From Bacteroides sp. CAG:530 (lineage in GTDB: Bacteria > Bacteroidota > Bacteroidia > Bacteroidales > Bacteroidaceae), in the NCBI GenBank assembly GCA_000434735.1, contig FR881281.1:12777-76776 (forward strand): DNA of 64,000 nt, in the 5' to 3' direction. Position 1 is the first letter of the stretch. The number at the start of each line of letters is the position of its first letter. The notes beneath the pieces were generated by a model, which had not been told where the DNA came from, did no database searches, and worked only from the letters and a program-made list of their open reading frames with translations. This document shows, one piece after another, positions 37,985 to 61,115 of the stretch. Made by a program: the position numbers and the translations under genes.

Positions 37985-40900
37985 ATGAAAAACCGTATCT
38001 ATACCATCGTATTACTGACCTTGTGCTTTTGCCTTAATATAACAATGGCACAAGGTGCTGGTCATTCTAAAGATAACCTGCATTTTTCTCATATCTCTAT
38101 CAATAACGGGTTGTCGCAGAACACTATATTCGCCATCGCGCAAGATGCCAAAGGCTATATGTGGTTTGCTACGCACAATGGGGTCAACAAATACGATGGA
38201 TACGATTTTACTATCTATCAGAATAATCCGCAAGATTCTACCACCATAGCAAACGATATTATCCGCACGTTGGTGACCGACGACAAAGGACGCGTATGGA
38301 TAGGAACCGAAAGCGGTTTATCGTATTACAACGAAGAAAGAGACATCTTTGAGAATTTCTACTTAAAGAATAGCAAAACAGCTACGGTTTCAAGCATAGT
38401 CACGCTGTCCGACTCGCAACTATTGGTCAACGCCGAGGGACAACTTTACAGTTTCGACGCTAAGAGCAAGGCATTCTCACAACAGACATTGCCTACCGAC
38501 CTGCTGCAACTCAACGTAACCGCCCTTTACCGTACCGCACAAAGCATATATATAGGTACTGCCGAAAACGGAGTTTTCGTGTGGGATTATAAGGGCAAGC
38601 GCATTCAGCGTTTAAGCCTCAGCATAAGACACCGCATACAAGCACTTTTGCTGCAAAATCCAAGCACGCTATGGATTGCGACTGAGGGAGAAGGCTTATA
38701 CCGACTCAACCCACAAACCGGAGAGCAGAAACATTATGTACATTCGTACAATGAAGGCGATATCAGCTCAAACTTTATTCGTGCCTTATCAGTTGATACA
38801 AAAGGTTATTTATGGATAGGTACTTTCAATGACCTTAACGTGTATCATGAAAGTAGCGATAAGTTCACTGCCTACACACATAACCCCATCGACCCAGAAA
38901 GTTTGAGTCAGCGTTCGGTGCGCTGCATCTACAAGGATTCGCAGGGAGGTATGTGGCTCGGCACGTACTTTGGCGGTATTAACTATTATCACCCGCTAAA
39001 GAACCGCTTCCGAAATATACAGCGACTAACATATAAGAAGCAACTGAACGACAATGTGGTAAGTTGCATAGTAGAAGATAGTAAGCACAACTTATATATA
39101 GGTACCAACGATGGCGGCGTAAACTACTACGACCCGCATACCGATGAGGTTACTTACTATACTTTCAACAACAAACAAAGTCCCGTAGTAGAATCTAACA
39201 ACGTGAAATGTATCTCTATCGACGAGAAAAGGAACGTAGTGTACGTAGGTACCCACGCTGGAGGAATAAAGATAATACACCGTGCCGGAGGCAACATAGA
39301 ACATTGCTATAGCGAGAATAATCCATCGGCAACACAGAACATTTATTCACTGCTGCCGTATAAGGATAACATGCTATGGGCAGGAACATTAAACGGACTG
39401 TACCTGTTCAATAAAGACAGCAAAACATTTACGGCTGTAGATAAAGATGTTAACGGCAATGAGATTCCAGACGAACAGATTAACATCTTATTCCAGGATT
39501 CAAAGCGAAGACTTTGGATTGGAGGTAAAAACAGTCTGACTGTATATAAGATAACAGACAACGGACTGAAAGCCATAAAGATTTCTATCGACGGCTTCAA
39601 CAACATTGTAGCGGTACAAGACATTCACGAAGATGAAGAACATTGTCTATGGTTCTGTACGCAATGGGGACTTTACAAGCTGGATAGAGAAAAGCACGTT
39701 ATCACTCATTACACCACCAAAAACGGACTGCCCAACAATGTGATATACGGCATAGAAGAAGACTCTTACCATCATCTTTGGCTCAATACCAACCACGGAT
39801 TGAGTTGCCTCAACCCATCGAACGGACAATTCAGAAACTTCTCCGTAAACGACGGACTGCAGAGTAACCAGTTTAATCCGCACTCGCACTGCCGCACTGC
39901 CGACGGAAGCTTATACTTCGGAGGCATAAACGGAATTTCAACATTCCGTCCAGAACTGCTTACGTTCAACCCATTTACGCCAAAGCCGTTCTTTACTAAA
40001 TTCTACCTATATAATAAGGAGGTACATCCGGGCGACGAAAGCGGAATACTTAGCAAGAACATTTCAGATACTGATTTCAGATACTGAAAAGATTGTCTTG
40101 AAGCCGTCGCAACGCGCCTTTACACTGGAGTTTGTAGTAACCAACTTCATATCCGGACAGCATAACACGTTCTCTTATCAGCTGGAAGGTTATGACAAGG
40201 AATGGTATTACCTTAAAGGACATCAGCGAAGCGTATCGTACTCTAACCTGCCCGCAGGAACGTACCGTTTCCTAGTGAAAGCTGCCAATAACGACGGACA
40301 TTGGAGCAGCGAACCCGCCATGCTTACCATCAAGGTGCTGCCCGTATGGTATGCTACTTGGTGGGCGATACTGTTATTCGTTATCATAACGGTAGCGTTG
40401 ATGGCTATTATATTACGTTATTTCTGGGAACGGAAGTCGATGGAAGCACGCCTGAAACTTGAACAGAAAGAGAAATTGCACCAAGAAGAGATAGCACAGA
40501 TGAAGATGCGTTTCTTCATCAACATTTCGCATGAGTTGCGTACTCCGCTTACTCTTATCTTGGCGCCGATACAAGATATGCTGGCTAAAACTACCGATAA
40601 ATGGATGAAAGAGCAGTTGAACTACGTAAACCGTAACGCCAATCGCTTGCTCAACCTTGTAAATCAGTTAATGGACTACAGAAGAGCTGAGCTGGGAGTG
40701 TTTAAGCTAAAGGTAGAGCATACATGTATATATAAGACAGTAAAAGAAAACTTCATGTTCTACGAAAAGTTGGCTCGTACCAAGAACTTGGAGTATACGT
40801 TAATTTCAGATATAGAAGATAAGGAATGCTATGCCGACCCTAAATACGTAGAGCTTATACTGAACAACTTGCTGTCTAACGCCTTTAAATATACCGAAAA

Positions 40901-42056
40901 AGGTAGTATCACTGTTCGCCTCACCATAAAGGACGACCAACTGCAGCTGGAAGTAAGCGATACAGGATGCGGTATAGAGCAAGACAAGCACAAGCGAATA
41001 TTCGAACGCTTCTATCAGCTTAAGAACAACTATGTAGGTAGCGGTATCGGACTCTCATTGGTAGAGCGTTTGGTGGAATTGCATCACGGACATATAGAAT
41101 TGGTAAGCGAAAAGGGCAAAGGTAGTATATTTACCATCTATCTGCCGCAGAACCCTAACGCATACGCCGAAAACGAATTCTATGGCAGCAGCGAAGATGC
41201 GGAACCAGAAGAAGTACACTCTACCAACTCTAAAGAGATGTATATCATAAACACCGAGAAAGACGACAACACCACAGAAGAAGATACCGACAATAAGAAA
41301 GGATGTATCCTTGTGGTAGAAGACAACGAAGAGATACGCCATTATCTATATAGCGGATTACAGCCCAACTTCTGCATAAAACAGGCAGCCAACGGTGCCG
41401 AAGCACTCGACATTCTGAAGGATACACAGGTAGATATCGTGATAACCGATGTCATGATGCCAGTAATGGATGGTATAAAACTATGTAAGCAGATAAAGCA
41501 GAACATTGTAACCAGCCATATACCTGTTATCATCCTTTCGGCTAAGACCGATGTGAACGATCAGATGCAGGCCATGCAGACTGGAGCCGATGACTACATA
41601 GCCAAGCCGTTCTCGCTTAGCGTGCTAATAGCCAAAGTGCAGAACCGCATGCGCACTCGTGCCCGCATGATAGAGCATTACGCAAAATCAGCCGAGGTAG
41701 ACCCTGAAAAGATAACCTTCAACGCTATGGACGAGAAGTTACTGAAACGCGCCGTCGAAGTAGTGAAGGCCAATATGGATAATCCAGAATTCTCTGCCGA
41801 AGAGTTTGCACGCAATATGAATATGAGTCGCTCTAACCTTCACCTGAAGTTGAAAGGCGTAACCGGAGAATCGGCTATAGAGTTCATACGCAAGATTCGT
41901 TTTAACGAAGCTTGCCGCTTGCTGCGCGAAGGACAATACAGTATTTCCGAGATAAGCAGCATGGTTGGTTTCAACACACCGTCATACTTCTCTACGGTAT
42001 TCAAGAAGTACATGGGTTGCTTGCCTACAGAATACGTTAAGAAAGGCAACCGATAA
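37985..42056 (+). pseudogene. hybrid two-component system sensor kinase/response regulator (HTCS; beta-propeller + Y_Y_Y + TM + HisKA/HATPase + REC + AraC-HTH), interrupted by a +1 frameshift caused by a 13-bp tandem duplication
   Basis: ORF 37985..40087 (700 aa) carries the periplasmic propeller repeats and ends NISDTDFRY*. ORF 40098..42056 (652 aa) starts in the +1 frame with Y_Y_Y, TM, HELRTPL, HATPase, REC (VVEDNEEIR...DVMMP) and the AraC HTH. Deleting one of the two ATTTCAGATACTG copies at 40061-40086 joins them as ...NISDTEKIVLKPSQRAFTLEF... It starts 4 nt after the tatC stop. Confidence 0.75.
40061..40086 (+). repeat. perfect 13-bp tandem duplication (ATTTCAGATACTG x2) inside the HTCS gene
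   Basis: The copies lie at 40061-40073 and 40074-40086. The length is not a multiple of 3, and the duplication creates TGA at 40085-40087. Confidence 0.9.
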
Positions 42057-42100
42057 TACGGCAGTCACAAGATTCTGTAAAAAACAACCAAGTTAATATG

Positions 42101-42142
42101 CGCTATGCCGCACGTCAACCAACGTGCGGCATAGCGTTTTTT
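42101..42142 (+). terminator. strong rho-independent terminator after the HTCS gene
   Basis: cgctatgccgcacg ... cgtgcggcatagcg (14-bp stem, 8-nt loop) + T6. Confidence 0.8.
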
Positions 42143-42199
42143 CGTATCTGTAATTGTCAAAAAACTTGCGAATAAAAGTTTGTTTTCTTTTATTCAATT

Positions 42200-42292
42200 C
42201 TATAAACTTAGCCTAAGAATATGTATACTTAGCCTAAGTTTATATATTCTTAGTTTAAGTTTTTATATACTTAGGCTAAGTTTATAGAATTC
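42200..42292. repeat. 4 copies (first inverted) of the 22-bp TTAGGCTAAGTTTATATAT unit, locus B
   Basis: Units are ctataaacttagcctaag (inverted), cttagcctaagtttatatattc, ttagtttaagtttttatatac and ttaggctaagtttatagaattc. The three direct units align copy-for-copy with 3891..3955 at roughly 85-90 % identity. It lies between the HTCS terminator and the PUL promoter. Confidence 0.7.
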
Positions 42293-42562: not shown

Positions 42563-44767
42563 ATGAATAAACTTCATCTCTGTCTCATCGCAGCGATGGC
42601 GCTTACCGCGTGCACTGAAGACGACGAGACTCTAAAGGGTTCAGGAGTGATAGAGGGTACTATCATGCCGACTGAAAAGCCCAATGATGTTATCACTGAA
42701 GGCATTTTTGAAAAGTTAAATCTCGACTACCCAGGGTTGGAAAAAGTGAAAGCTTACCACGAGGCTGGTCAAGATTATTACGCATGCTATGAATTGTTGC
42801 AGTACTATCGCAACCGTAGCAACGTAATCAACCCAAGCATCGACTTGATTAACACATCTTACTCTGCCGCAGAAAAAGCTATGGCCGACCAAGCTCTGCT
42901 GCATCAGTTCTATGTTCGCGGCTTTTCTGCCGACTTAGGCGCAGACAATAAGCAAGGAACTTCTGATGACACATTCTACAAATTCGAGAAGAAAGACGAA
43001 AACGGACAAACTGTTATCGACTGGGATTTGCAGGTAGAAGGAGTAACCAGCGCAGAATTCAAATATCAGCGTCACCGTTGGCAGTGGATGGAACCGCAGG
43101 CCAAGACATATCGCGTAACCAAAAACGAAGATTATATCAAGAATTGGATAGAGACCTACCAAAGCTGGATGAATACTTATCCATGCCCTAACGCAAAATT
43201 CGACGATAACGAAACTGATAAGAACTCAAACTATCAGTGGAAAGGACTGCAGACTGCCGAACGTTTGCTGTCGCAGCTTAACGTAATGCAGTACTATCTG
43301 CAATCTACCAACTTCACACCCGAATGGCTTTCTACATTCTTGATTTCTATAGCCGATCATGTAGAAATGATTCGCAAGAACTACTATCAGACTCCGGGCG
43401 ACAACATTCGCTTAAGCCAGATACAAGCCGTATTTACAGCAGGAGTATTGATGCCGGAATTTAAGAACGCCACAGAATGGACAAACGAAGCATCTACTAT
43501 GCTCGATACGGAAATAGGTTCTCAGTTCCTTGAAGACGGTGTACATGCCGATCTCGACCCGAGCTATCACATCGGTTCAGTAAGCAACTGCCTCAGCCTC
43601 TATTATCTGTTGTCGCTTAACGATAAGACAGATTTGCTGCCGGCTTCGTTCGTATCGAAGCTGAAAAACGCTACTAACTTCCTGAAAGACATAATCTATC
43701 CAAACTATACTATCGACAATTACAACGATACCCGTTCAGACAGATTAGGTAAGAGCATTCAGATTAAGAACTTCAAGAAATACAGCGAAATCTATCCAGA
43801 CGATGAAGAAATGAAGTACATGGCATACGAACGTGCCAAAGGCACTGTGCCTTCGTACACTACTAAAGCATATTCGGCAGCAGGTTACTACATGCTTCGT
43901 AGCGGTTGGACAGAAAACTCTACCATGATGGTACTGAAGAATAACTATAATCCTGAAGCTAAATGGCACTGCCAGCCGGATAATCAGACATTCAGCCTAT
44001 ACCGCAACGGACGTATATTCTTCCCCGATGCAGGATGTCATGGATACGAAGGTGACCCGTTACGCAAAGATTTCGCAGCGGCAGTAAACCACAACACTTT
44101 GACCGCATTGAGTAAAGACCCAGACGCAACTCACCGTAAAGGAAAGTTCCTTACCATGTATACAGAAAAAATGAACGGTGTAAATGTTGACGTTCTTTCT
44201 ACTCAGTTCGAGATGAAAGAAGGTTTGACTCACCGTCGTACAGTATTCTTCGTTAATAAGGCATTCTTCGTTATTGCCGATGAAGCATTTGGTGATGGAA
44301 ACAAAGACAAGGTGAACTTGAACTTCCACATGATTACAACTGATGAATGTCCTACAGTAGCCGATGCTGACGCTGACAAGAAAACAGCAGGACTCCACAC
44401 TACCTTTACCGACGGTAACAATATGGTATTGCGTTCTTTCTACGCTGAAGGCTCTACAACCGGAGCGCTTGAAGGTAAAATAGACAACAAGGAAACAGAA
44501 GTATGGAATAATACTGCTGATGCCATTTCTAAAGCAAGCGGAAAGCGTTTAGGCATGAAATTCAATGTTCGTAAGCCTATCAACGGAGCATCTCGCCTCA
44601 TCACTATCATCAAACCGATAGACGGAGCTTATGACGCAAACATGGAACTCGACGCTAAGTTTACCGACAACACGGAAGAGACACGCAATACGTTCCATGC
44701 CGACGGCGTGACACTGCAAGTTACAGTAGACGGCAAGACTTATAATTTGCAAGCAAAAATAAAATAA
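42563..44767 (+). CDS. heparinase III-family (PL12-like) polysaccharide lyase, lipoprotein
   Basis: 734 aa with a signal + lipobox (LTAC). It shares paralog-like blocks with the 53531 gene (LNLDYPGLEKVK, HRWQWM, WHCQPDN, HRRTVFFVN, FVIADEAFG), typical of heparinase II/III-like (alpha/alpha-toroid + beta-sandwich) lyases. Confidence 0.75.
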   Translation: MNKLHLCLIAAMALTACTEDDETLKGSGVIEGTIMPTEKPNDVITEGIFEKLNLDYPGLEKVKAYHEAGQDYYACYELLQYYRNRSNVINPSIDLINTSYSAAEKAMADQALLHQFYVRGFSADLGADNKQGTSDDTFYKFEKKDENGQTVIDWDLQVEGVTSAEFKYQRHRWQWMEPQAKTYRVTKNEDYIKNWIETYQSWMNTYPCPNAKFDDNETDKNSNYQWKGLQTAERLLSQLNVMQYYLQSTNFTPEWLSTFLISIADHVEMIRKNYYQTPGDNIRLSQIQAVFTAGVLMPEFKNATEWTNEASTMLDTEIGSQFLEDGVHADLDPSYHIGSVSNCLSLYYLLSLNDKTDLLPASFVSKLKNATNFLKDIIYPNYTIDNYNDTRSDRLGKSIQIKNFKKYSEIYPDDEEMKYMAYERAKGTVPSYTTKAYSAAGYYMLRSGWTENSTMMVLKNNYNPEAKWHCQPDNQTFSLYRNGRIFFPDAGCHGYEGDPLRKDFAAAVNHNTLTALSKDPDATHRKGKFLTMYTEKMNGVNVDVLSTQFEMKEGLTHRRTVFFVNKAFFVIADEAFGDGNKDKVNLNFHMITTDECPTVADADADKKTAGLHTTFTDGNNMVLRSFYAEGSTTGALEGKIDNKETEVWNNTADAISKASGKRLGMKFNVRKPINGASRLITIIKPIDGAYDANMELDAKFTDNTEETRNTFHADGVTLQVTVDGKTYNLQAKIK

Positions 44768-44792: not shown

Positions 44793-47045
44793 ATGAACGT
44801 AAGACACAACATCTTATCCCGATTTTTGGGAGTTTTGACGGTCATGGTATTCGCATTGCTGGGCATTACTTCATGCTCGGAAACAGAAACCACCGACAAA
44901 ACCGATTTTATTCTCTACTATACCAGCATGACCGATATAGGTCCTGGCATGAGTAGCGACATTGCACAACCCAGTTACAAGGGAGCCACACCTTCTGACT
45001 TCACTATCACAGGAGTTACTTTGGACGGACAGGCTTACACAGGCAACTTGTTCGAGATTAATCCTACTAGCGGAACAGTACACATAGAAAGCGATGAAAC
45101 AACCCCAGTAGGTGTTTATAAGATTTCTGTTTCGTGTGTAGCAGGTGGAAGCACTTTCACTTACAACGACATTATCAGTGTAAACTTCTTGAAGCGTGTG
45201 CCCGAAGGCATCACTGTTACTCCGGAAGCATTGGTTGCCGATTTCGCTGACATCATCGATGCCAACAGTACAGTAGAATTACCTACCGCACAGGTTACTA
45301 CAGAACAGAACCATATCTCTATTACAGGATATTCTATCTCAAGCGTTCGCTTAGGCGAGACTATCGTCGACAACAAGAAGAACCCGATGTTCGCTGTTTC
45401 TTCAGACGGAACAATCTCTATCGTTCGCGGCTCTAATGCTATCGAACCGGGACTTTACACTATCGACCTTAAGTTGAACACTGCCGTATCGGGTAGCGAC
45501 AGCGAAGAAGGTTTGTTCGCTAACGCACTTACTGTAAACGTAACTTCTAAGCCGTTGGCTTTGACTTACGCTACAGGTAAATTGGAAGAAGCTACAGAAG
45601 AATCGGGCAACACATCTTTCGTTAGCCAAGTTCCTACATTCAAGGGTTCTACAGACGGTATCGCTTATTCTATAGAAAGCGTTTCGCCAGCTTCAGACAA
45701 ATTCGTTATCGATGCCAAGACTGGCGTTATCTCTGTAGCCGAAGGTCACGGACTTAAGAGCGGCGAAAAATATGTTGTCTCTGTTCGCGTTAAGAACGAC
45801 TATAGCACAGAAGGTGTAGTATTCAACAACGTATTCACACTGAACGTAGTAGAATACATCGAGCCTATTTCTAACTTCGCTTACGAAATGACTCCTGTTA
45901 CAGAACAGGTAGAATTCGAAATTCCTGTAAAAGACGGATTCAAGGGTGCAGAACCTGTATTCGTATTTGAATCTATCTCTGCCGAAGATAAGAACATCGT
46001 ATCATTGGACGGAAAGACCGGAACAATCTCTGCTAAGAAAGGTCACAAACTGACTTTAGGAGAACACAAGTTCACCGTAAAAGCATCAAACGATAAGAAT
46101 AGCGAAACCGCAGAGTTAATTATCAATGTCACTGAAAACCCCAACAAGTTTACATACATCCGCTACGGAAACAACTTGGGATTGACTCCTGCCGAAAACT
46201 ACGCTAACCAGTTCAGACTGGCAGATAAGGAAGAATTCAACGGTAACGCAGAATTTAGCACTCCTGAAACCGACAGTAAAAAGACATTGACTTGGAGCGT
46301 AAGCGGAATTGACGTTGGTGGTACTTCAACTTGGAATAAAGTAAAAATTGACTCTAAAACTGGTAAATTAACTCTCAATGCTCTACCTAATGAACAAAAA
46401 TGTGTTGTAGTATTGGTAAAAGCTACTGCAGGTTCTGGCAAAAAGGCTTATTCTATAACAGTGCCAGTATTCTTCCACAACTCTAATGCTGATAAAACTA
46501 ATGGTAAGATAGAATACACCCCATTCGTTCTGCAAGTAAATCCAAAGAAGGGTGGACGTTCTGTTACTCCTACCATTACTAACACTATAGATATGAGCAA
46601 ATTTGTTTTGGATTTCAGACGTGACCCTATCTATTACAATATTAATGGAGAATATCAAGACGGCACCCCACTTGAATCGGGAGGTACGCAAAAACACACA
46701 AAAGGCTACTATAAACAGTCTCCATTTATGGAAGCCTTGTGGGTACAATGCGGAGCTGGATTAGGAGCCAAAGCCCCCATGGCTTACTTCGATGTAAAGG
46801 GCAATATAAGGGAAAATCATACAGATAAAACATTGGGTTATGTAGACAATGCAGACGGAGACAAGAAATTCTCAGTTGTAATAAACGCTAACCAATGGTG
46901 CCAACGTGCAGAAGATAGCCAGGATATATTAGCTTGGGCAAACGGTGTCGTCATAATGAGCATGACATATAGCGACAACGTCACTAATGTAAACAAAGGA
47001 ACAGAAGTAGGTCCTATCGTAATTTGGCTTGATACTAATTTTTAA
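44793..47045 (+). CDS. PUL-encoded surface lipoprotein, probable surface glycan-binding protein (SGBP)
   Basis: 750 aa with a signal + lipobox (ITSC). It has multiple Ig-like beta-sandwich repeats and no catalytic motifs. Its position next to susC/susD matches PUL SGBPs. Confidence 0.55.
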   Translation: MNVRHNILSRFLGVLTVMVFALLGITSCSETETTDKTDFILYYTSMTDIGPGMSSDIAQPSYKGATPSDFTITGVTLDGQAYTGNLFEINPTSGTVHIESDETTPVGVYKISVSCVAGGSTFTYNDIISVNFLKRVPEGITVTPEALVADFADIIDANSTVELPTAQVTTEQNHISITGYSISSVRLGETIVDNKKNPMFAVSSDGTISIVRGSNAIEPGLYTIDLKLNTAVSGSDSEEGLFANALTVNVTSKPLALTYATGKLEEATEESGNTSFVSQVPTFKGSTDGIAYSIESVSPASDKFVIDAKTGVISVAEGHGLKSGEKYVVSVRVKNDYSTEGVVFNNVFTLNVVEYIEPISNFAYEMTPVTEQVEFEIPVKDGFKGAEPVFVFESISAEDKNIVSLDGKTGTISAKKGHKLTLGEHKFTVKASNDKNSETAELIINVTENPNKFTYIRYGNNLGLTPAENYANQFRLADKEEFNGNAEFSTPETDSKKTLTWSVSGIDVGGTSTWNKVKIDSKTGKLTLNALPNEQKCVVVLVKATAGSGKKAYSITVPVFFHNSNADKTNGKIEYTPFVLQVNPKKGGRSVTPTITNTIDMSKFVLDFRRDPIYYNINGEYQDGTPLESGGTQKHTKGYYKQSPFMEALWVQCGAGLGAKAPMAYFDVKGNIRENHTDKTLGYVDNADGDKKFSVVINANQWCQRAEDSQDILAWANGVVIMSMTYSDNVTNVNKGTEVGPIVIWLDTNF

Positions 47046-47073: not shown

Positions 47074-50000
47074 ATGCATCAATACACTATAAAATCGGCA
47101 AGCAAAAGAGGGTTCATCACCCTCCTTGCCTTGATGATGTCTGTATGTCTGTACGCTCAGCGAATAACACTGAACGGTGTTGTTATAGACGAGACAGACC
47201 AACCGCTTATCGGTGCTACCGTACAAGTTGTGGGTACACCCGATGGTACCATTACCGATTTCGACGGTAACTTCTCTCTGAAAGTTAAGAAAGGAGCAAA
47301 GATTACTTTCTCTTACGTAGGATACTTAAGCAAAACCTTGACTTTCCAAGGACAGAACAAAGTAACCGTAAAACTGGAACCGGACAACAAGACTTTGGAA
47401 GAAGTAGTAGTTGTAGGTTACGGCGCTATGAAACGTAGCGACTTGACAGGATCTCTTTCATCAGTAGGTGGAAAAGACATCGAGGGTTATAAAACAAGTA
47501 ACTTGGCGGGAGCGTTGAGCGGCCAGGTTGCTGGTGTTCAGATTACCCAGACCGATGGTGCGCCGGGTTCTGGCTTCAACATCAACATCCGTGGTGTAGG
47601 TACCTTGACTGGTGATAATGCACCTCTTTATATAGTAGACGGTTTCCAGGTAGACGATATCAGCTATCTGTCTGACTCGGATATCGAAGACATCTCTGTA
47701 TTGAAAGATGCTTCTTCGGCTGCTATCTACGGTTCTCGCGCTGCAAACGGTGTTATCTTGATCTCTACCAAGCAGGGTAAGGAAAGCAAGCCTATCATTA
47801 CTTATAAGGGCTCTGCCACTTACCGTAGCATCGCTAAGAAACTCAATTTGCTTAGCCCGTACGAATTCGTAAAACTGCAGGGTGAAATCAACGATAAATA
47901 CTTGACCTCTTACTTCCAGGAAGGAAATGACTCTGAAGGCAACCCATACCGTTATCAATCGCTCGACGACTTTATCGGTGTAGAAGGTATCGACTGGCAA
48001 GACCAGACTTTCAATCCTACTTGGTCTACCGATCATAACGTAAGCATCATCGGTGGTACTGACAAGTCTAAATATTCAGGCTCTCTGTCGCGCTACGTAG
48101 AAGAAGGTATCTTCAACAACAGTGGTTTCGACAAGACTACCGGAAAGCTTCGTTATACTAACAAGCTCACTAAGAAGGTATCATTGGATGTTACATTCAA
48201 CTATGCCCAGACTAACCGTAAAGGTGTAGGTACATCGGCCGACTCTGGTCGTTTCAACATGTTGGCACAGATTATCAGTGCACGTCCTACCGCAGGTAAC
48301 CGCATGACTGATGACGAATTGCTGAACGCTTTCATCGACCCAACTATGTTGGAAGACGGAAACGATAATATCGCACAGGTAAACCCTGTATTGCAGACTG
48401 AAAACGTTACTAACAAGAAACGCTCTGAATATTGGTCGGCTAACGGTGCTGTAAACTGGGAAATCAGAAAAGGATTGACTTTCCGTACTGCTGCCACTTA
48501 CAACACTACCAACACCAGAACAGACATATTCTACTCTCAGAAGACAAAAGAAGCATACCGTAACGGTGGTAAGCCTTATGGTTCAAGCCAGATGCAACGC
48601 GATTCACGCTGGGTAAACAGTAACACCTTGACTTGGAAACAGAAGATTAAAAAACATCAGTACGATGTAATGTTGGGTCATGAAGTTTCACACAAGACTA
48701 CAGAGTACTTATACGGTCAGGCAATGGATTTCCCATTCGATAACCTGGGCAACAATAACTTAGGTCTTGGAGCTACTCCGAGCAAAGTAAATTCTGATTA
48801 TAGCGACAACTCGCTGCTTTCATTCTTTGCACGTGCCAACTACAACTACGACAACCGCTACTTGTTCACTGCAACAATGCGTGCCGATGGTTCTACAGTA
48901 TTCTCTAAGAACAATAAATGGGGATACTTCCCTTCATTCTCTGCCGCATGGCGTGTTTCTGAAGAAAAGTTCATGAAGAACTTGGATTGGATTTCTAACA
49001 TGAAGTTGCGTTTAGGATGGGGTCTTGTAGGTAACGACCGTATCAAGAACTACTTGTCGCTTGATCTTTATACAGACTCTAAATACGGTGTAGGAAACCA
49101 AATAGTAACTGTATTGACTCCGAAGCAGCTGCGTAACAGTGACTTGAAGTGGGAGGCATCTTCTACTGTCAACGCAGGTATAGACTTGGGCTTCTTCGCT
49201 AACCGCTTGAGCTTGACTGCCGACTTCTTTATCAAGAACACCAAAGACTTGCTGTTAGCACAGTCGTTGGCACACGTAACAGGTTTCGATTCTCAGTGGC
49301 AAAACGTAGGTAAGATTCAGAATAGAGGTATTGAATTAAGTATCAACAGCACAAACATTCAGTCTAAGAACTTCACTTGGCAAACCAACTTCAACATTTC
49401 GTTCATCCATAACGAATTGAAATCGTTGGCATCGGGAGTAGACGCAATGTATGCACGTTCAGGATTCGACGGCAACTTTACTTCTTACGACTACATCGCA
49501 AAAGTAGGCGAATCACTGGGCTTAATATACGGTTATGAATTCGACGGTATCTACCAATACTCTGATTTCAACCAGACTCCTGACGGAAAATGGATATTGA
49601 AAGAAGGTGTAGTAAATAACGCCGGATACAAAACTAAAAATACAAACTTGGAACCGGGATGCGTGAAATACAAAGACCAGGACGGCGACGGTGAAATCAC
49701 TACTAAAGACCGTACGGTAATTGGTAACACACTGCCTAAGTGGTATGGTGGTATCACCAACAATTTCAACTTCAAGGGTGTAGACTTCAGCTTCATGTTC
49801 CAGTTTAACTACGGTAACGATTTATACAACGCAACCCGTCTGTACAGTACTCAGACTCGTTTGGGCCGTCGTAACATGATGGCGGAAGTAGCAGACCGTT
49901 GGTCCGCCTACAAACGCATCTAACCTCGTTCCGAAGACAAACGGTTACATCACCAACGAAGTATATTCACGTTTCGTAGAAGACGGCTCATTCCTCCGTT

Positions 50001-50230
50001 TGAAGAACGTAACTTTGGGATATACCATTCCGCAGAAACTTACTAAGAAGTTCTATGTACAGAAACTCCGCGTATACGGAAGCGCACAGAACTTGTTCTG
50101 CCTGAGCAAATATAGCGGTTACGACCCAGAAGTAAGTACAGCTGCAAACAACCCGATGACACCGGGACTTGACTGGGGTGCATATCCTAAGAGCCGTATC
50201 TTCACAATAGGACTTGATTTACAATTCTAA
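47074..50230 (+). pseudogene. SusC-like TonB-dependent transporter, apparent +1 frameshift near 49900-49907
   Basis: ORF 47074..49923 (949 aa) carries the carboxypeptidase-regulatory-like, plug and barrel domains and ends ...ADRWSAYKRI*. ORF 50000..50230 is the canonical SusC C-terminus (...GLDWGAYPKSRIFTIGLDLQF), and its frame is open from 49892. Reading W-S in frame 1 and then PTNASNLVPKTNGYITNEVYSRFVEDGSFLRLKNVTLGYTIPQ in frame 2 restores a normal SusC; one extra nucleotide (around g49906) explains it. Confidence 0.7.
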
Positions 50231-50245
50231 TAAAAACGAAACAGT

Positions 50246-51964
50246 ATGAAAAGACATAAATTATATACCTTATTACTGGCAGGACTGGTTACTCTGGGTT
50301 CTACTTCGTGCAGCAACTTCTTGGAAGAAGAAGATAAAGTAGAAGTAGAAAAGAAGAACTACCTGACCAACGCCGACGAAGCACAGAACGTACTTTTAGG
50401 CGTATACCGCACTAACGTGAGAGAAGCGATGTATGGCCGCTACTTGTCTATCCACTTCAGCTTGGGTACCGATATGGAACAAGTAGAAGGTAGCAATACG
50501 GAAAACTTCCGTATTGTTCCTACCAACGCTTATCCCGCTACACAATCGGAAGTACAGCAGGCATGGCAATCGCTGTATATGGGAATTTATAACGCAAACG
50601 ATTTCTTGGAACAGCTGTCACTGCACATCGACAGCTACAGCCAGTCGGATAAAAAGAAAGCATTGATCTATGCAGCCGAAGCACGTTCATTGAGAGCTCT
50701 TTACTACTTCGAGTTAGTTCGCCGTTGGAACCGTGTGCCTTTGTTCACTAATACAGAACAATCTCACCAGAAACCGGAAACATTTGTACAGGCAGAGCCG
50801 GCTGAAGTATATAAGTTCATAGAAGAAGACTTGAAATATGCTGCCGAAATATTGCCGTATGCAACAGACGACGATGTACGTAGCGACAATTCTTACCGTT
50901 TCTCTAAGGGTGCCGCATTAGGATTGCTGGCTAAGGTATACGCTACATGGGCAGGATATCCTGTAAACGATACATCAAAATGGAAAGACGCTGCCGAAAC
51001 TGCCGCACAGCTTATCAACTCTGGTAAGCATGACTTGCTGCCCGACTTCGAGACATTGTGGGAAAACACCGCCAACGGCGTATGGGATCCTACAGAAAGT
51101 CTTATCGAAATCTCATTCTACTCGCCTACAGCTGCCGGTGGCGCAAACGACCCTTGCGGATACATAGGCAAATGGAACGGTGTACCGGCTTCGCAGATCT
51201 CGGGTACACGCGGAAGCTGTAAAGGTAACGTGAAGGTAATCTATCCGTTCTCATATAAATGGCAGCAGATAGCAGAGCAGAAAGGCGACAAGCGTTGGGC
51301 TTTGTCAATCTCTAACTTCCAGTACAAACCTACCAAGACATTCTTCGGTAAAGCTGGACAGTATACTATAGGTGATGAAAAAGTAACGCTTACTGCAGAA
51401 GAAGCAAGTCTTAATCCTGATGTAGACCAGAAGAACAAGCAATACTTCACTCCTGCCAAATGGGATTTGGAGAAATATACTAACGCTGCCAACAAGCTGA
51501 TAAACGACGACCGCTCTAACACTAACTGGTATGTATTGCGCTACGCCGATGTCTTACTTATCTATGCAGAAGCGCTGAACGAATGGAAGGGACATCCTAC
51601 TAACGAAGCATACGCCGCTATCAATAAGGTTCGTCGTCGTGGATTCGGTAACCCGAGCAACACATCCGTTTGCGACTTGCCTGCCGCTCTTAGCCAGGAA
51701 GCATTCCGCCAGGCAGTACGTGATGAGCGTGCATACGAATTGGCATTCGAAGGACACCGTCGTCTTGACTTGGTGCGTTGGGGTATCTATTACCAGACAA
51801 TCACCAAAACTTACAAAGACCTCCTGAACTGGTGGTCGAGCGACAACGAAAACTTCAACTATGCCATTTACCAATACACCATCGAAGGCAAGCATGAGCT
51901 GATGCCTATCCCGCAACGCGACATGGACTTGTGTCCGCAATTCAAGCAGAACCCGAAGTGGTAA
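50246..51964 (+). CDS. SusD/RagB-family outer-membrane glycan-binding lipoprotein
   Basis: 572 aa with a lipobox (STSC) and TPR-like SusD architecture. It lies immediately downstream of susC. Confidence 0.9.
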   Translation: MKRHKLYTLLLAGLVTLGSTSCSNFLEEEDKVEVEKKNYLTNADEAQNVLLGVYRTNVREAMYGRYLSIHFSLGTDMEQVEGSNTENFRIVPTNAYPATQSEVQQAWQSLYMGIYNANDFLEQLSLHIDSYSQSDKKKALIYAAEARSLRALYYFELVRRWNRVPLFTNTEQSHQKPETFVQAEPAEVYKFIEEDLKYAAEILPYATDDDVRSDNSYRFSKGAALGLLAKVYATWAGYPVNDTSKWKDAAETAAQLINSGKHDLLPDFETLWENTANGVWDPTESLIEISFYSPTAAGGANDPCGYIGKWNGVPASQISGTRGSCKGNVKVIYPFSYKWQQIAEQKGDKRWALSISNFQYKPTKTFFGKAGQYTIGDEKVTLTAEEASLNPDVDQKNKQYFTPAKWDLEKYTNAANKLINDDRSNTNWYVLRYADVLLIYAEALNEWKGHPTNEAYAAINKVRRRGFGNPSNTSVCDLPAALSQEAFRQAVRDERAYELAFEGHRRLDLVRWGIYYQTITKTYKDLLNWWSSDNENFNYAIYQYTIEGKHELMPIPQRDMDLCPQFKQNPKW

Positions 51965-52211: not shown

Positions 52212-53534
52212 ATGAAAAAACTGATTGCATTTGCTGCGGCAGCCATTGCTCTTGCCTCATGCCAGACTCAACCAAAAGAAGATTACAGCTGGATTAAAAA
52301 CGGACTTGATGTAGCACAACAGCAACTGATGCTTGCTGCTCACGAAGCTGAAGGAACAGGTAAATTGCCTCGTACTACTTATCAGAGTTACGACATGAAC
52401 TTCCTCTGCGAACAGTTGGAAAGAGATTCTGCAACATTTAAAGACTCATTGCGTCAGTCTGCTCCTGCCGAAAAAGTAGGAAAGATGAAACTCTGCACAG
52501 TGAAAGACTGGACAAGCGGATTCTTCCCAGGTTCTTTATGGTATGCATACGAATTGACAGGAAATGACTCGTTGAAAACAGAGGCTATAGAATATACTAA
52601 CTTGCTGAACCCAGTACGCTATTATAGAGGTACTCACGACTTGGGCTTCATGATTAACTGCAGCTATGGTAACGCACTTCGTCTTACCAAGAACGATACA
52701 ATTGCTGCAGTAATGCACGAAACCGCCGATAACCTCTGCAGCCGATTCAACGAAGGTATCGGTTGTATCCGTTCATGGGACTTCGGTACATGGAATTTCC
52801 CGGTTATCATCGACAACATGATGAACCTCGACTTGCTCTTCACTGTAAGCAAACTTACAAACGACGATAAATATAAAAACGTTGCTATCACCCACGCTAA
52901 CACTACCATGAAAAATCACTTCCGTCCGGACTACACTTCATGGCACGTAGTAAGCTATAACAATGACGGTACAGTAGAACGCAAACAGACTTTCCAAGGA
53001 AAGAACGACGACTCTGCATGGAGCCGCGGCCAGGGATGGGGCGTATACGGATATACAGCTTGCTTCCGTGAAACAAACGATTCTACTTACTTGAAATTCG
53101 CATGCAATATTGCAGATATGATTATGAGCCGTGTTAAGACAGACGACGCTATTCCTTACTGGGATTATATGGCTCCTGTAACTCCTGAAACTCCGCGCGA
53201 CGCATCGGCTGCAGCTGTTACAGCTTCTGCCATGTTAGAACTTAGCACATTCGTTGCCGACGGACAGAAATACTTTGACTACGCAGAAAAGATTCTGAAG
53301 AGTTTGTCGAGCGACGCTTATTTGGCTAAGCCAGGCACAAACGGCGGCTTCATCTTGATGCACTCTACAGGTTCTTTGCCTAACGGAAGTGAAATCGATG
53401 TTCCTTTGAACTATGCTGACTACTACTACTTGGAAGCTCTGAAGAGATACATGGATTTAAAGCACATTTCATACAAAATACATGGATTTGAAGCACATTT
53501 CATACAAAGACCTTTAATAATAAGTAATTCATGA
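52212..53534 (+). CDS. glycoside hydrolase family 88 (unsaturated glucuronyl hydrolase), lipoprotein; C-terminus altered by a 31-bp tandem duplication
   Basis: 440 aa with a lipobox (LASC) and GH88 alpha6/alpha6 motifs (SGFFPGSLWYAYELTG, RGQGWGVYGYTA). The last ~20 codons are read through a duplicated segment, and the stop overlaps the next gene's ATG (ATGA). Confidence 0.8.
   Translation: MKKLIAFAAAAIALASCQTQPKEDYSWIKNGLDVAQQQLMLAAHEAEGTGKLPRTTYQSYDMNFLCEQLERDSATFKDSLRQSAPAEKVGKMKLCTVKDWTSGFFPGSLWYAYELTGNDSLKTEAIEYTNLLNPVRYYRGTHDLGFMINCSYGNALRLTKNDTIAAVMHETADNLCSRFNEGIGCIRSWDFGTWNFPVIIDNMMNLDLLFTVSKLTNDDKYKNVAITHANTTMKNHFRPDYTSWHVVSYNNDGTVERKQTFQGKNDDSAWSRGQGWGVYGYTACFRETNDSTYLKFACNIADMIMSRVKTDDAIPYWDYMAPVTPETPRDASAAAVTASAMLELSTFVADGQKYFDYAEKILKSLSSDAYLAKPGTNGGFILMHSTGSLPNGSEIDVPLNYADYYYLEALKRYMDLKHISYKIHGFEAHFIQRPLIISNS
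53447..53508 (+). repeat. 31-bp tandem duplication (atacatggattt[a/g]aagcacatttcatacaaa x2, 30/31 identical) at the 3-prime end of the GH88 gene
   Basis: The copies lie at 53447-53477 and 53478-53508. 31 nt gives a +1 frame change, so the tail reads ...RYMDLKHISYKIHGFEAHFIQRPLIISNS* instead of ...RYMDLKHISYKDL*. Confidence 0.9.
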
Positions 53535-55528
53535 AATTAAAACATATAGCATTAAGCATAGTAGCTTGTATCGGTATGGCACAAGCTACTGCACAAGAGC
53601 TTAAAACGGAAGTTTTCTCTTTGCTGAACCTTAATTATCCAGGTTTGGAGAAAGTTAAGTCTTTGCACGAATCAGGAAAAGACAAAGATGCTGCACAGGC
53701 ATTGCTCGATTATTACCGCGCACGTACCAACATCAAGACTCCTGATATTAACCTGAATAAGATTACTATCGGTAAGGAAGAACAGAAGTGGGCCGACGAC
53801 GCTATGGAGCATACATTCTTCGTACATAAAGGCTACCAGCCATCGTTCAACTACGGAAAGGACATCAACTGGAAATACTGGCCTGTACAAGATAACGAAT
53901 TGCGTTGGCAGCTTCACCGTCACAAATGGTTTACTCCGATGGGTAAAGCATATCGCGTGTCGGGCGACGAGAAGTATGCTAAAGAATGGGCCGCTCAATA
54001 TATCGACTGGATTAAGAAAAACCCGTTGGTATCTATCGACAAGAAAGAATATGAACTGACAAGCAACGAAACCCTGAAAGGCGATGTAGAAAACATGCGT
54101 TTCGCTTGGCGTCCGCTGGAAGTTAGTAACCGCCTGCAAGACCAGACTACACAGTTCCAGTTGTTCTTGCCGTCTCCTTCGTTCACTCCGGAATTCCTTA
54201 CCGAGTTCCTTGTAAACTACTACAAGCACGCTGTTCATATCCTGAACAACTACTCAGACCAAGGAAACCACTTGCTGTTCGAAGCACAGCGTATCATCTA
54301 CGCCGGAACATTCTTCCCAGAATTCAAGGACGCTTCTGCATGGAGACAGAGCGGTATCGGTATCTTGAACCGCGAAATCAAAGTTCAGGTTTACGATGAC
54401 GGTGGACAGTTCGAGCTCGACCCGCACTATCACTTGGCATCAATCAACATTTTCTGCAAGGCTTTGTACATAGCAGATATGAACGGATTCCGCAATGATT
54501 TCCCGCAGAGCTACATGGATACAGTAGAAAACATGATTATGTTCTACCTGAACATCTGTTTCCCCGACTATACCAATCCTTGCTTCAGCGACGCTAAGCT
54601 GACAACAAAGAGAGAAATGGTCAAGAACTACAAAGAATGGAGCAAATTGTTCCCAAAGAATAAGGCTATCTTATACTTCGCAAGCGAAGGCAAAAAAGGA
54701 GAACTTCCTGCATACTTGTCTAAAGGTTTCTTGAAATCAGGTTTCTTTGTATTCAGAAACTCTTGGGGTGAAGACGCAACTCAGATGGTAGTTAAGGCTG
54801 GTCCGAAAGCATTCTGGCACTGTCAGCCCGATAACGGTACATTCGAGATGTGGTTCAACGGAAAGAATCTGTTCCCCGACTCTGGTTCTTATGTATACGC
54901 CGGAAGCAAGGAAGTAAACGAAGAACGTAATTGGTTCCGCCAAACTGCGGTTCACAACACACTTACTCTGAACAACAAGAATCTTGACCAGACAAATTCT
55001 AAGACTCTGTTGTGGCAGCCCGAAGGCGATATTCAGACACTTGTTACTGAAAACCCGAGCTACAAGAACCTTACTCACCGTCGTAGCATCTTCTTTGTAA
55101 ACAACACATATTTCGTGATTGTAGACGAAGCTATCGGTGCAGCAAAAGGCTTTGTAAACTTGCACTACCAAATGCCGAAAGGTAAGATTGCCAATAGTCG
55201 TGAAGACATGACTTTCATTACCGAGTTTGAAAGCGGAAGCAACATGAAGTTGCAGTGCTTCGGTCCTGACGGCATGAGCATGAAGAAAGAAGAAGGTTGG
55301 GCATCTACAGCTTACCGCAAGAAATTCAAACGTATGAATGTTTCATTCAACGTTAAGAAAGAAAACGATGCGGTACGTTACATCACCATCATCTATCCGA
55401 TGAAAGACAGCGCAGATGCGCCTGCTATGTCGGCTAAGTTCAAGACTAAGAAATTCGACGGTAAGAACTTGGAAGTTGAAGTAAAAGTAGGTGGCAAGAA
55501 ACAATCTTTGAAATATACCTTGCAATAA
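53531..55528 (+). CDS. heparinase III (PL12-family heparin/heparan-sulfate lyase)
   Basis: 665 aa with a signal peptide. Its size and motifs match HepIII-type enzymes (LNLNYPGLEKVK, HRHKWF, WHCQPDN, HRRSIFFVN). Confidence 0.8.
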   Translation: MKLKHIALSIVACIGMAQATAQELKTEVFSLLNLNYPGLEKVKSLHESGKDKDAAQALLDYYRARTNIKTPDINLNKITIGKEEQKWADDAMEHTFFVHKGYQPSFNYGKDINWKYWPVQDNELRWQLHRHKWFTPMGKAYRVSGDEKYAKEWAAQYIDWIKKNPLVSIDKKEYELTSNETLKGDVENMRFAWRPLEVSNRLQDQTTQFQLFLPSPSFTPEFLTEFLVNYYKHAVHILNNYSDQGNHLLFEAQRIIYAGTFFPEFKDASAWRQSGIGILNREIKVQVYDDGGQFELDPHYHLASINIFCKALYIADMNGFRNDFPQSYMDTVENMIMFYLNICFPDYTNPCFSDAKLTTKREMVKNYKEWSKLFPKNKAILYFASEGKKGELPAYLSKGFLKSGFFVFRNSWGEDATQMVVKAGPKAFWHCQPDNGTFEMWFNGKNLFPDSGSYVYAGSKEVNEERNWFRQTAVHNTLTLNNKNLDQTNSKTLLWQPEGDIQTLVTENPSYKNLTHRRSIFFVNNTYFVIVDEAIGAAKGFVNLHYQMPKGKIANSREDMTFITEFESGSNMKLQCFGPDGMSMKKEEGWASTAYRKKFKRMNVSFNVKKENDAVRYITIIYPMKDSADAPAMSAKFKTKKFDGKNLEVEVKVGGKKQSLKYTLQ

Positions 55529-55604
55529 ACCATTTATTGTTGTCGGGGATGGGATGAACATAATCCCTACTCCGACCTCAATAAAACCATTATAACTCTA
55601 TATC

Positions 55605-57209
55605 ATGAAAACAGTATCTCAAGCAGCATTGTGCCTTCCTTTAGTGGCACTGAATTTAACAAGCTGCGCAACCCAAAAAAAAGAAGAGCCGAAACAGCCG
55701 AACATTATTTTTATAATGACCGACGACCATACCACTCAGGCTATGTCTTGCTACGGAGGAAATCTTATCCAGACTCCAAACATGGACCGCATCGCCAATG
55801 AAGGTATCCGTTTCGACAACTGCTATGCAGTAAACGCCCTTTCAGGTCCGTCAAGAGCCTGCGTACTGACAGGTAAATTCAGCCACATGAATGGCTTTAC
55901 AGACAACGCTTGTAAATTCAACGGCGATCAGCAGACATTCCCGAAACTATTGCAGAAAGCAGGATACGAAACTTCTATCATCGGAAAATGGCATCTTATC
56001 TCTGAACCACAAGGATTCGACTACTGGAGTGTCTTAAGCGGACAAGAAGAACAAGGTGACTACTACGATCCTGACTTCTGGGAAAACGGTAAACACATAA
56101 CAGAAAAAGGTTATGTAACCGATATTATCACAGACAAGGCGATAAAATGGATGGAAGGACGCGACAAGAGCAAACCGTTCTGCATGATGTTCCACGAAAA
56201 AGCGCCTCATCGCGACTGGATGCCGGCTCCACGTCATTTAGGTATATTCAACGACGTTACTTTCCCCGAACCAGAGAATCTGTTCGATGACTACAAGGGA
56301 AGACAAGCTGCAGCCGAACAAGACATGTCGATTGCCAAGACTCTGAGAGAAGACTGGGACTTGAAACTTCTTACTCACGACGAAATAGTAAACGGAAAGT
56401 CAAGACTGCGCGATGTCTATATGCGTATGCCGGAAGATGTTCAGCACAAATGGGATTCTGTTTATGCACCACGTATCGCAGAATATCGCAAAGGCAACTT
56501 GAAAGGCAAAGAATTGATAAGCTGGAAATATCAGCAATACATGCGCGATTATCTGGCAACCGTTCTTTCTGTAGACGAAAACATCGGACGATTGCTTGAT
56601 TATCTGAGCGAAACAAATCAGTTGGACAACACTATCATAGTTTATACTTCCGACCAAGGCTTCTTCTTGGGAGAACACGGATGGTTCGACAAGCGATTCA
56701 TGTACGAAGAATGCCAGCGTATGCCGCTTATCATACGTTACCCCAAAGCTATTAAGGCAGGTTCTGTAAGCTCGGCTATCAGTATGAACGTTGACTTCGC
56801 TCCTACATTCCTCGACTTTGCAGGTGTTGATATACCGGAAGATATTCAGGGTAAATCATTGAAGCCTATCCTCGAAAACGAAGGAAAGACTCCTGCCGAT
56901 TGGCGCAAGGCTGCCTACTATCATTATTATGAATATCCGGCAGAACACTCAGTTAAACGTCACTACGGAATACGCACACAAGACTTTAAGTTGATTCATT
57001 TCTATAATGACATCGATGTTTGGGAAATGTACGACATGAAGAAAGATCCGCATGAGATGAACAACATCTTTGGCAACCCTGACTATGCCGACAAGCAGCA
57101 AGAACTGATGCAGCTGTTGAAAGAGACTCAGGAACAATATAAAGATACCGACCCCGACGAAAAAGAAAAAGTACTTTTCAAGGGCGACCGTAGATATATG
57201 AAACGATAA
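55605..57209 (+). CDS. S1-family sulfatase, Ser-type (formylglycine motif S-G-P-S-R)
   Basis: 534 aa with a lipobox (LTSC). The sulfatase signature is NALSGPSRACVLTG, and the metal-binding motifs are IFIMTDDHT and GKWHL. Confidence 0.9.
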   Translation: MKTVSQAALCLPLVALNLTSCATQKKEEPKQPNIIFIMTDDHTTQAMSCYGGNLIQTPNMDRIANEGIRFDNCYAVNALSGPSRACVLTGKFSHMNGFTDNACKFNGDQQTFPKLLQKAGYETSIIGKWHLISEPQGFDYWSVLSGQEEQGDYYDPDFWENGKHITEKGYVTDIITDKAIKWMEGRDKSKPFCMMFHEKAPHRDWMPAPRHLGIFNDVTFPEPENLFDDYKGRQAAAEQDMSIAKTLREDWDLKLLTHDEIVNGKSRLRDVYMRMPEDVQHKWDSVYAPRIAEYRKGNLKGKELISWKYQQYMRDYLATVLSVDENIGRLLDYLSETNQLDNTIIVYTSDQGFFLGEHGWFDKRFMYEECQRMPLIIRYPKAIKAGSVSSAISMNVDFAPTFLDFAGVDIPEDIQGKSLKPILENEGKTPADWRKAAYYHYYEYPAEHSVKRHYGIRTQDFKLIHFYNDIDVWEMYDMKKDPHEMNNIFGNPDYADKQQELMQLLKETQEQYKDTDPDEKEKVLFKGDRRYMKR

Positions 57210-57235
57210 TTCACTTTTATATAATTTATAATACT

Positions 57236-58864: not shown

Positions 58865-58865
58865 A

Positions 58866-61090: not shown

Positions 61091-61115
61091 AATATAATTT
61101 ATTACTTTATCCAAC

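Follow-up and report, generated by a model that had tools for sequence, protein, structure and literature searches.

A single-base insertion in susC of a putative heparin/heparan sulfate locus of Bacteroides sp. CAG:530 and recurrent loss of function in the front genes of this locus

The stretch of 64,000 bp of Bacteroides sp. CAG:530 analysed in this study (GenBank assembly GCA_000434735.1, contig FR881281.1, positions 12,777 to 76,776 of the forward strand; hereafter the window, whose own numbering is used throughout) carries a putative polysaccharide utilization locus (PUL) for heparin/heparan sulfate (HS), in which the gene for the transporter SusC is divided over two reading frames. The divided gene shows the following features:

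47074-49923, forward strand: 5' part of susC, 949 aa, with signal peptide, carboxypeptidase-regulatory-like domain, plug and most of the barrel (PF13715, PF07715, PF00593)
49904-49905, forward strand: 1-nt insertion, CC versus a single C in all intact alleles
49921-49923, forward strand: premature stop codon TAA, from the translation
49906-50230, forward strand: 3' remainder of susC in the +1 frame, residues 945-1051 and stop, ending with ...GLDLQF

In frame 0, the open reading frame (ORF) has the C-terminus ...MMAEVADRWSAYKRI / ...NMMAEVADRWSAYKRI (DRWSAYKRI*) and terminates at 49921, as the initial annotation had stated. The +1 frame has a stop codon at 49889-49891, is open from 49892 up to a double stop at 50228-50233 (coding to 50230) and translates as QTVGPPTNASNLVPKTNGY / QTVGPPTNASNLVPKTNGYITNEVYSRFVEDGSFLRLKNVTLGY...GLDWGAYPKSRIFTIGLDLQF, which is the conserved SusC C-terminus PTNASN...GLDLQF; both frames overlap by 30 nt (49892-49921). 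Comparison with the NCBIfam profile TIGR04056 (SusC/RagA) resulted in 857.8 bits for the 949-aa product, covering positions 1-880 of 981, while the +1-frame piece covered positions 896-981 of 981, and the intact allele P0123 matched the complete profile (1-981 of 981, 972 bits), as expected for a member of this family. Since the profile is split across the two frames, they represent one susC gene divided by a shift of one base, with the C-terminal beta-strands in the +1 frame, just where they had been placed before. The SusC/RagA signature TIGR04057 (residues 203-233), the plug PF07715 and the N-terminal domain PF13715 were also detected in the window gene, and a complete barrel with a C-terminal aromatic residue is not encoded there in any single frame. 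As judged from these profile matches, susC of the window is a disrupted copy of a SusC/RagA family gene.

The junction of intact conspecific alleles reads GACCGTTGGTCGCCTACAAAC (TGG TCG CCT ACA) versus GACCGTTGGTCCGCCTACAAAC in the window, i.e., TCG is changed to TCCG. The extra base is either C of the pair at 49904-49905 and was called by MAFFT as 'ins C at SusC nt 2830'. A single extra nucleotide near 49906 had been proposed initially; the single base is correct, while its identity as g49906 is not, the actual change being the duplicated C. Deletion of either C or of g49906 restores the same protein, ...DRWSPTNASN..., and exactly this junction, to which an ortholog alignment had been advised, is encoded by the intact conspecific alleles. 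Residues D941, R942, W943, S944, T946, N947, S949, and N950 are invariant across 24 orthologues, and the frame-shifted tail of the window product comprises five codons between the insertion and TAA. Compared with the intact 1051-aa alleles (including P0122 and P0123), the +1-frame remainder differs in 0-1 of 107 residues (V1000I in P0001 and P0124). For the truncated product, a database entry exists under CDA76087.1, named 'putative uncharacterized protein' [Bacteroides sp. CAG:530]. A phase-variable simple-repeat switch was rejected, as C is changed to CC in a non-repetitive context and no repeat tract is present. One further private nonsynonymous change was seen at SusC residue 258, which is Asn in the window clade and Asp or Glu in every intact allele examined.

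An exact-sequence look-up of the 949-aa product identified at least ten contigs, from which eight distinct places were listed (L001-L008, eight ENA assemblies). All of them read GACCGTTGGTCCGCCTACAAAC and are 99.77-99.97% identical to the window. The carrier assemblies derive from several pipelines (SPIRE-style scaffolds, metaSPAdes NODE contigs, and a k127 MEGAHIT-style contig), and the carrier contigs differ from each other by single nucleotide polymorphisms (SNPs) and further lesions: L003 and L004 carry an additional GAA>TAA nonsense mutation in the gene for the surface glycan-binding protein (SGBP, codon 481), L002 has a 21-bp in-frame deletion within the surface lyase gene, and L001 is free of a 31-bp duplication present in the window. 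A search with the repaired protein, in comparison, led to a cluster at 90% identity with 612 members, mostly intact 1051-aa alleles. The intact TCG junction was found in the contigs of these alleles (L072-L083), in L087-L108 (anchored on SusD or the 542-aa protein), and in six pattern-scan contigs of a separate collection. In the sister species (L009, 86% identity), the junction is TGG TCG CCG ACA and in frame, and the whole locus is open. A scan of the genome collection did not reveal the species of the window, the best match being the sister species at 86% identity, so that the comparison at the species level is based on metagenome contigs. As all conspecific loci outside the carrier clade and the sister species are in frame, TCG can be regarded as the ancestral and TCCG as the derived state. 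Conspecific lineages diverge by 2-3% in nucleotide sequence, while the carriers form one tight clade (<0.3% divergence); thus, the insertion arose once and recently.

A sequencing or assembly error, with a single C in the genome and an intact susC in the organism, would explain the window as such, and two observations are in line with it, namely the presence of one probable assembly artefact in the window (an imperfect 31-bp tandem duplication at 53447-53508) and the very low coverage of some carrier contigs. The same extra C across eight assemblies from different pipelines, on contigs that differ mutually, in turn argues against an error, as do its position outside any homopolymer run and the confinement of the carriers to one tight clade, as for an inherited mutation. 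With other lineages in frame, the possibility of a sequencing error left in the initial annotation is effectively closed, and we consider this explanation very improbable.

Programmed +1 ribosomal frameshifting or another kind of recoding could also restore a full-length SusC and leave the gene functional. The one feature speaking for it is the 30-nt overlap, as a +1 shift anywhere therein would result in a near-normal protein. On inspection, the site UGG UCC GCC UAC AAA showed neither an in-frame stop nor a hungry codon nor a slippery or stall motif of the prfB type, in which CUU UGA C is preceded by a Shine-Dalgarno-like element. None of the other lineages of the species shows the shift, nor does the sister species; the junction is in frame in all of them, and a true recoding site would be conserved and not restricted to one near-clonal clade. 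In agreement with the initial annotation, which did not expect programmed frameshifting, the chance of recoding appears next to nil.

As regards its consequence, the window product loses residues 945-1051, i.e., the last 107 residues of SusC, a segment that is densely invariant among the 24 orthologues, including the terminal F1051. The intact allele could be aligned from one end to the other with solved structures of the SusC family (query 11-1051 to chain 12-999, E 9e-153; SusC homologues 8aa4_A and 5t3r_D, and RagA 6sli_B), with the SusC/RagA signature in common; the window product, unlike these, ends before the final strands. Assembly of outer membrane beta-barrels by the barrel assembly machinery (BAM) depends on a closed barrel, complete up to its last strands, and on a C-terminal aromatic residue as recognition signal. 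Since the missing residues would include the final strands and the C-terminal Phe signal, the truncated barrel should not be assembled by BAM and would then be degraded, so that no SusCD import complex would be formed and heparin/HS oligosaccharides would be unable to enter. In addition, susD starts 322 nt past the susC stop in the window versus 15 nt in intact loci, by which its close (translational) coupling to susC would be lost. A terminator scan of the 322 nt of untranslated susC sequence revealed no terminator-like site on the plus strand; a polarity effect on susD is conceivable. Already by itself, the frameshift would make this lineage unable to import heparin/HS, and recognition of the 'uncharacterized protein' CDA76087.1 as a truncated SusC may help to predict the glycan niche of the strain.

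With a derived frame disruption compared to intact close relatives and an identical allele in eight ENA assemblies, the susC frameshift is very probably a real, recent, and derived inactivating insertion in the heparin/HS locus of one lineage, i.e., an ordinary pseudogene. Several points weigh against this interpretation. The allele is deduced from assembled contigs and not from reads, and several of these contigs have a low k-mer coverage of 1.3-2.4. Some assemblies may share cohorts or individuals, which makes the number of independent hosts uncertain. Loss of SusC folding and transport is deduced from established knowledge on barrels; the AlphaFold model of the intact SusC (24-sequence alignment) is poor, with a mean pLDDT of 37.6, and is only indicative in placing three strands past residue 944 (973-985, 997-1009, and 1042-1050). 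Finally, the apparent fraction of broken loci given below is inflated by the listing of one entry per gene context.

A second lesion was identified upstream in the gene for the hybrid two-component system (HTCS), which is split into two ORFs in different frames, while intact conspecific HTCS proteins have 1352 aa:

37985-40087, forward strand: N-terminal HTCS fragment, 700 aa, periplasmic beta-propeller sensor (Pfam Reg_prop)
40061-40086, forward strand: 13-bp tandem duplication, frameshifts the HTCS gene
40098-42056, forward strand: C-terminal HTCS fragment, 652 aa, with Y_Y_Y, HisKA, HATPase, receiver, and AraC HTH domains (Pfam)

The split is caused by a perfect tandem duplication of 13 bp (ATTTCAGATACTG x2), which was also found in L001, L097, and L098; the 700-aa product was detected, at the protein level only, on a short Logan contig (SRR29904083) as well. 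As the HTCS is cut between its periplasmic sensor and the transmembrane/kinase part, the locus should be uninducible, and together with the truncated SusC it would be both uninducible and import-dead, i.e., doubly dead. Given that the HTCS duplication already disables the locus independently, the loss of susC may have no additional effect on the phenotype. Both lesions occur together on the window and L001, which are the sole contigs spanning both sites, while the 700-aa fragment was only found on contigs of the same clade, the short ones among them (L097, L098, and SRR29904083) ending before susC.

This arrangement fits a neutral secondary decay, in which the locus was first silenced by the HTCS duplication and later acquired the susC insertion as a phenotypically silent hit. 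Apart from the two lesions on the window and L001, L097 and L098, which carry the HTCS duplication, belong to the same assembly series as contigs with the susC frameshift, and further lesions have accumulated within the clade (the SGBP nonsense mutation in L003/L004 and the 21-bp in-frame lyase deletion in L002). The intermediate genome of the clade, with a broken HTCS and an intact susC, was not found among the contigs examined, so that either hit may have come first. We give neutral decay slightly less than an even chance.

Downstream of the HTCS gene and its terminator, a strong hairpin-plus-T-run at ~42098-42140, and upstream of the surface lyase gene, we observed four copies of a palindromic core CTTAG-N-CTAAG with a spacing of 21 nt (42198-42281), the third of them degenerate (CTTAGTTTAAG). 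This array could be the operator to which the HTCS binds through its AraC-type output domain.

The complete locus is organized as follows:

37985-42056, forward strand: HTCS (Pfam)
42563-44767, forward strand: surface heparin/HS lyase, PL12-type, BT4662-like, intact (PF16889, PF07940)
44793-47045, forward strand: SGBP, BT4661-like, intact (PF16319 full length, 1288.7 bits)
47074-50230, forward strand: susC as a whole, split
50246-51964, forward strand: susD, intact, 572 aa (PF07980, PF14322), the adjacent partner of susC
52212-53534, forward strand: GH88, open (Pfam)
53531-55528, forward strand: second (periplasmic) lyase, open (Pfam)
55605-57209, forward strand: sulfatase, open (Pfam)
57236-58864, forward strand: 542-aa protein, open
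58866-59819, forward strand: ROK kinase, open (Pfam)
59774-61090, forward strand: MFS transporter, open (Pfam)
61116-63611, forward strand: PL15-like lyase, open (Pfam)

Based on Pfam domains, the locus is co-linear with the heparin/HS PUL BT4652-BT4663 of B. thetaiotaomicron, for which layout and gene roles in heparin/HS use have been described (PMC9067506), and its gene content is that of a PUL of this type. The likeness extends over HTCS, PL12-type lyase, BT4661-like SGBP, SusC, SusD, GH88, periplasmic lyase, sulfatase, putative N-sulfatase, ROK kinase, MFS transporter, and PL15-like lyase, in the order described there (PMC9067506), and rests on layout and families, not on the sequence of BT4660 itself; the nearest orthologues of SusC in named Bacteroides species are ~73% identical over their full length. 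Lipoprotein signals with acidic surface-export motifs were found in the first lyase (C-TEDDE), the SGBP (C-SETE), and SusD (C-SNFLEEED), while the N-termini of GH88 and the sulfatase do not show such a motif, which fits the surface and periplasmic modules of B. thetaiotaomicron. The difference lies in SusC, which is cut at residue 944 in the CAG:530 window, and in the split HTCS, so that the locus cannot function in the manner known from B. thetaiotaomicron. All downstream genes (52212-63611) were open in the frame check versus conspecific references. In the rest of the 64-kb window, no further broken gene was evident from the ORF map, with nine genes checked by Pfam, which speaks against a general decay of the assembly; one suspicious pair of overlapping ORFs turned out to be LrgA and LrgB, each with a full-length profile match.

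The 31-bp duplication mentioned above (53447-53508) lies at the 3' end of GH88, where it overlaps the start of the next lyase gene, and its two copies differ by a single A/G exchange. Neither L001, a near-identical re-assembly, nor any of the conspecific loci contains this duplication, which extends the GH88 ORF to 440 aa compared to 423-425 aa (423 in L001). Probably, it represents a k-mer bubble or assembly artefact.

We checked the reading frame of every gene of the locus in ~45 conspecific loci and located each counted lesion in the DNA. This led to 15 independent, DNA-verified loss-of-function (LoF) events, all of them in four front genes:

HTCS, two events: 13-bp duplication (window clade); GGA>TGA at codon 426 (L077)
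Surface lyase, four events: +A (L074); GAG>TAG at codon 31 (L085/86/90); +C at nt 97 (L087); +G at nt 2 (L093)
SGBP, five events: GGA>TGA at codon 79 (L072); -G (L075); -11 bp (L078); GAA>TAA at codon 468 (L077); GAA>TAA at codon 481 (L003/4)
SusC, four events: +C (window clade); GAA>TAA at codon 271 (L085/86/90); GGA>TGA at codon 838 (L088); +TG duplication with a stop at codon 418 (L105)

In the same ~45 loci, no LoF event was found in tatC (upstream), susD, GH88, the second lyase, the sulfatase, the 542-aa gene, the ROK and MFS genes, or the last lyase. The survey covered 336 kb of sequence in the four front genes compared to 386 kb in the nine others, and the chance that none of 15 events falls into the latter is ~1e-5. 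Since the look-up lists each distinct gene context once, the share of broken loci is inflated, including the 4 of 20 contexts with a broken susC in two samples not chosen on SusC state, whereas the asymmetry between front and back genes is unaffected. The susC allele of the window is one instance of a recurrent inactivation of the entrance of the locus (sensor, surface lyase, SGBP, and SusC), with the periplasmic and cytoplasmic genes for catabolism kept intact. While the single feature is an ordinary pseudogene of a known kind, this entrance-specific recurrence is the moderately interesting part.

Three more HTCS breaks (L087, L089 with 767 aa, and L092 with 871 aa) were deduced from the lengths of called products and are not part of the count. 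The HTCS product of L087 has 652 aa, the same length as in the window, yet belongs to another lineage (96.8% identity), and the protein differs from that of the window in eight residues. An 'insertion' in the SGBP gene of L095 was left out because it contains an N gap. In L084 (12246-12386), susC passes into unrelated sequence at gene nt 2246, 140 nt from the contig end. Two contigs, one from NCBI, are recorded with the 762-aa product, and the break was likewise not counted. It may be an insertion of a mobile element and thereby a fifth SusC LoF allele. Three of the four lyase knock-outs (L085/86/90, L087, and L093) are located within the first 100 nt (orthologous to 42563-42665), removing the lipoprotein signal; they leave an ORF of 700-723 aa, which could be restarted from an internal Met.

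In regard to constraint, the ratio of nonsynonymous to synonymous substitution rates (dN/dS) between lineages was 0.023 for SusC, 0.049 for HTCS, 0.074 for the surface lyase, and 0.25 for SGBP, compared to 0.023-0.085 for the downstream genes; thus, the front genes except SGBP are as constrained in the long term as the back genes. Among the SGBP orthologues (44793-47045), many in-frame indels were seen, and the C-terminal half of L080 is strongly divergent.

The distribution of the lesions bears on both evolutionary explanations of the susC loss. For neutral decay, it cuts both ways. Two hits are also present in other lineages (L077, L085/86, and L087), and many events may be near-neutral, as B. 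thetaiotaomicron lacking the SGBP or the surface lyase was only marginally affected in growth (PMC9067506), all of which agrees with silent second hits. Not expected from decay is that second hits, like first ones, are confined to the four front genes, with the ~13 kb of downstream genes free of them.

Alternatively, loss may be positively selected, if it is of local advantage to inactivate the surface/uptake module or its activator; the susC insertion would then be one adaptive knock-out. The advantage could consist in an escape from phage, bacteriocin, or antibody, or in saved costs where HS is not limiting. Selection is indicated by the confinement of the hits, including second hits, to the entrance module and by the recurrent loss of a transporter under constraint: SusC has at least four independent LoF alleles (L084 maybe adding a fifth) despite its low dN/dS, all 15 verified events affect the sensor and three of the four surface-exposed components, and the SGBP evolves fast with in-frame indels. 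Moreover, locally adaptive LoF followed by reversion has been proposed for gut Bacteroides (PMC11379459), and Sus/TonB proteins have been implicated in phage sensitivity (PMC11601342). Against selection, no antagonist was identified in this analysis, and SusD revealed zero hits though surface-exposed (about two expected, not significant). Nine of the 15 events (SGBP and surface lyase) may be near-neutral, given the marginal deletion effects in B. thetaiotaomicron (PMC9067506), and the asymmetry could instead reflect harm from blocked catabolism while import is running, in which case only losses on the entry side may be tolerated. On balance, we regard positive selection as plausible, if short of an even chance. 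Whether the susC lesion was itself selected or was a phenotypically silent second hit after loss of the regulator seems about equally likely; the molecular reading is secure, while the evolutionary cause of the loss is not settled.

Locally adaptive LoF combined with long-term purifying selection has been discussed for gut Bacteroides (PMC11379459), and parallel evolution and adaptive LoF in Sus and surface genes are reported from a within-host study of B. fragilis (cited in PMC11379459; preprint 10.1101/208009). The studies share with our data the recurrent premature stops and frameshifts at the tips of the tree in genes strongly conserved in the long term; they differ in that the CAG:530 events are spread across hosts rather than seen in tracked individuals and come from metagenome assemblies of an uncultured species, with selection deduced from the distribution only. 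Tentatively, and with appreciable doubt, we propose that the entrance module (HTCS, surface lyase, SGBP, and SusC) is a hotspot of locally adaptive, possibly reverting knock-outs in CAG:530. If true, an agent acting on exposed proteins (phage, bacteriocin, or IgA) or the cost of expression would be the driver, and the intact downstream catabolic genes would allow the pathway to be re-activated. The repeated knock-out of a constrained transporter in different hosts would provide a natural allele series, which bears on adaptive and reversible PUL loss in the gut (the reversion model) and on the agent selecting against exposed proteins.

Such front-end knock-outs may not be confined to the heparin locus, as suggested by two strains at the neighbouring ECF-sigma/anti-sigma/SusC locus: in one (L103, 16726-17031), the sigma factor is truncated to 101 aa versus 171 aa, and in the other (L104, 19499-21629), with a different flanking gene content, a SusC-like gene is split into 99 and 895 aa.

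Finally, the substitutions themselves were considered. With respect to relaxed selection, private substitutions of the window lineage numbered seven nonsynonymous to seven synonymous versus a hand tally of ~73:249 in the other lineages listed; these numbers are too small to interpret and are confounded by the GH88 artefact of 31 bp and by the known change of dN/dS with time. Among the LoF events, all seven nonsense mutations (L003/4, L072, two in L077, two in L085/86/90, and L088) are G>T changes on the coding strand, turning GAA, GAG, or GGA into a stop codon, while the expected share is 19.5%, which suggests a G:C to T:A bias, possibly a strand-asymmetric one.

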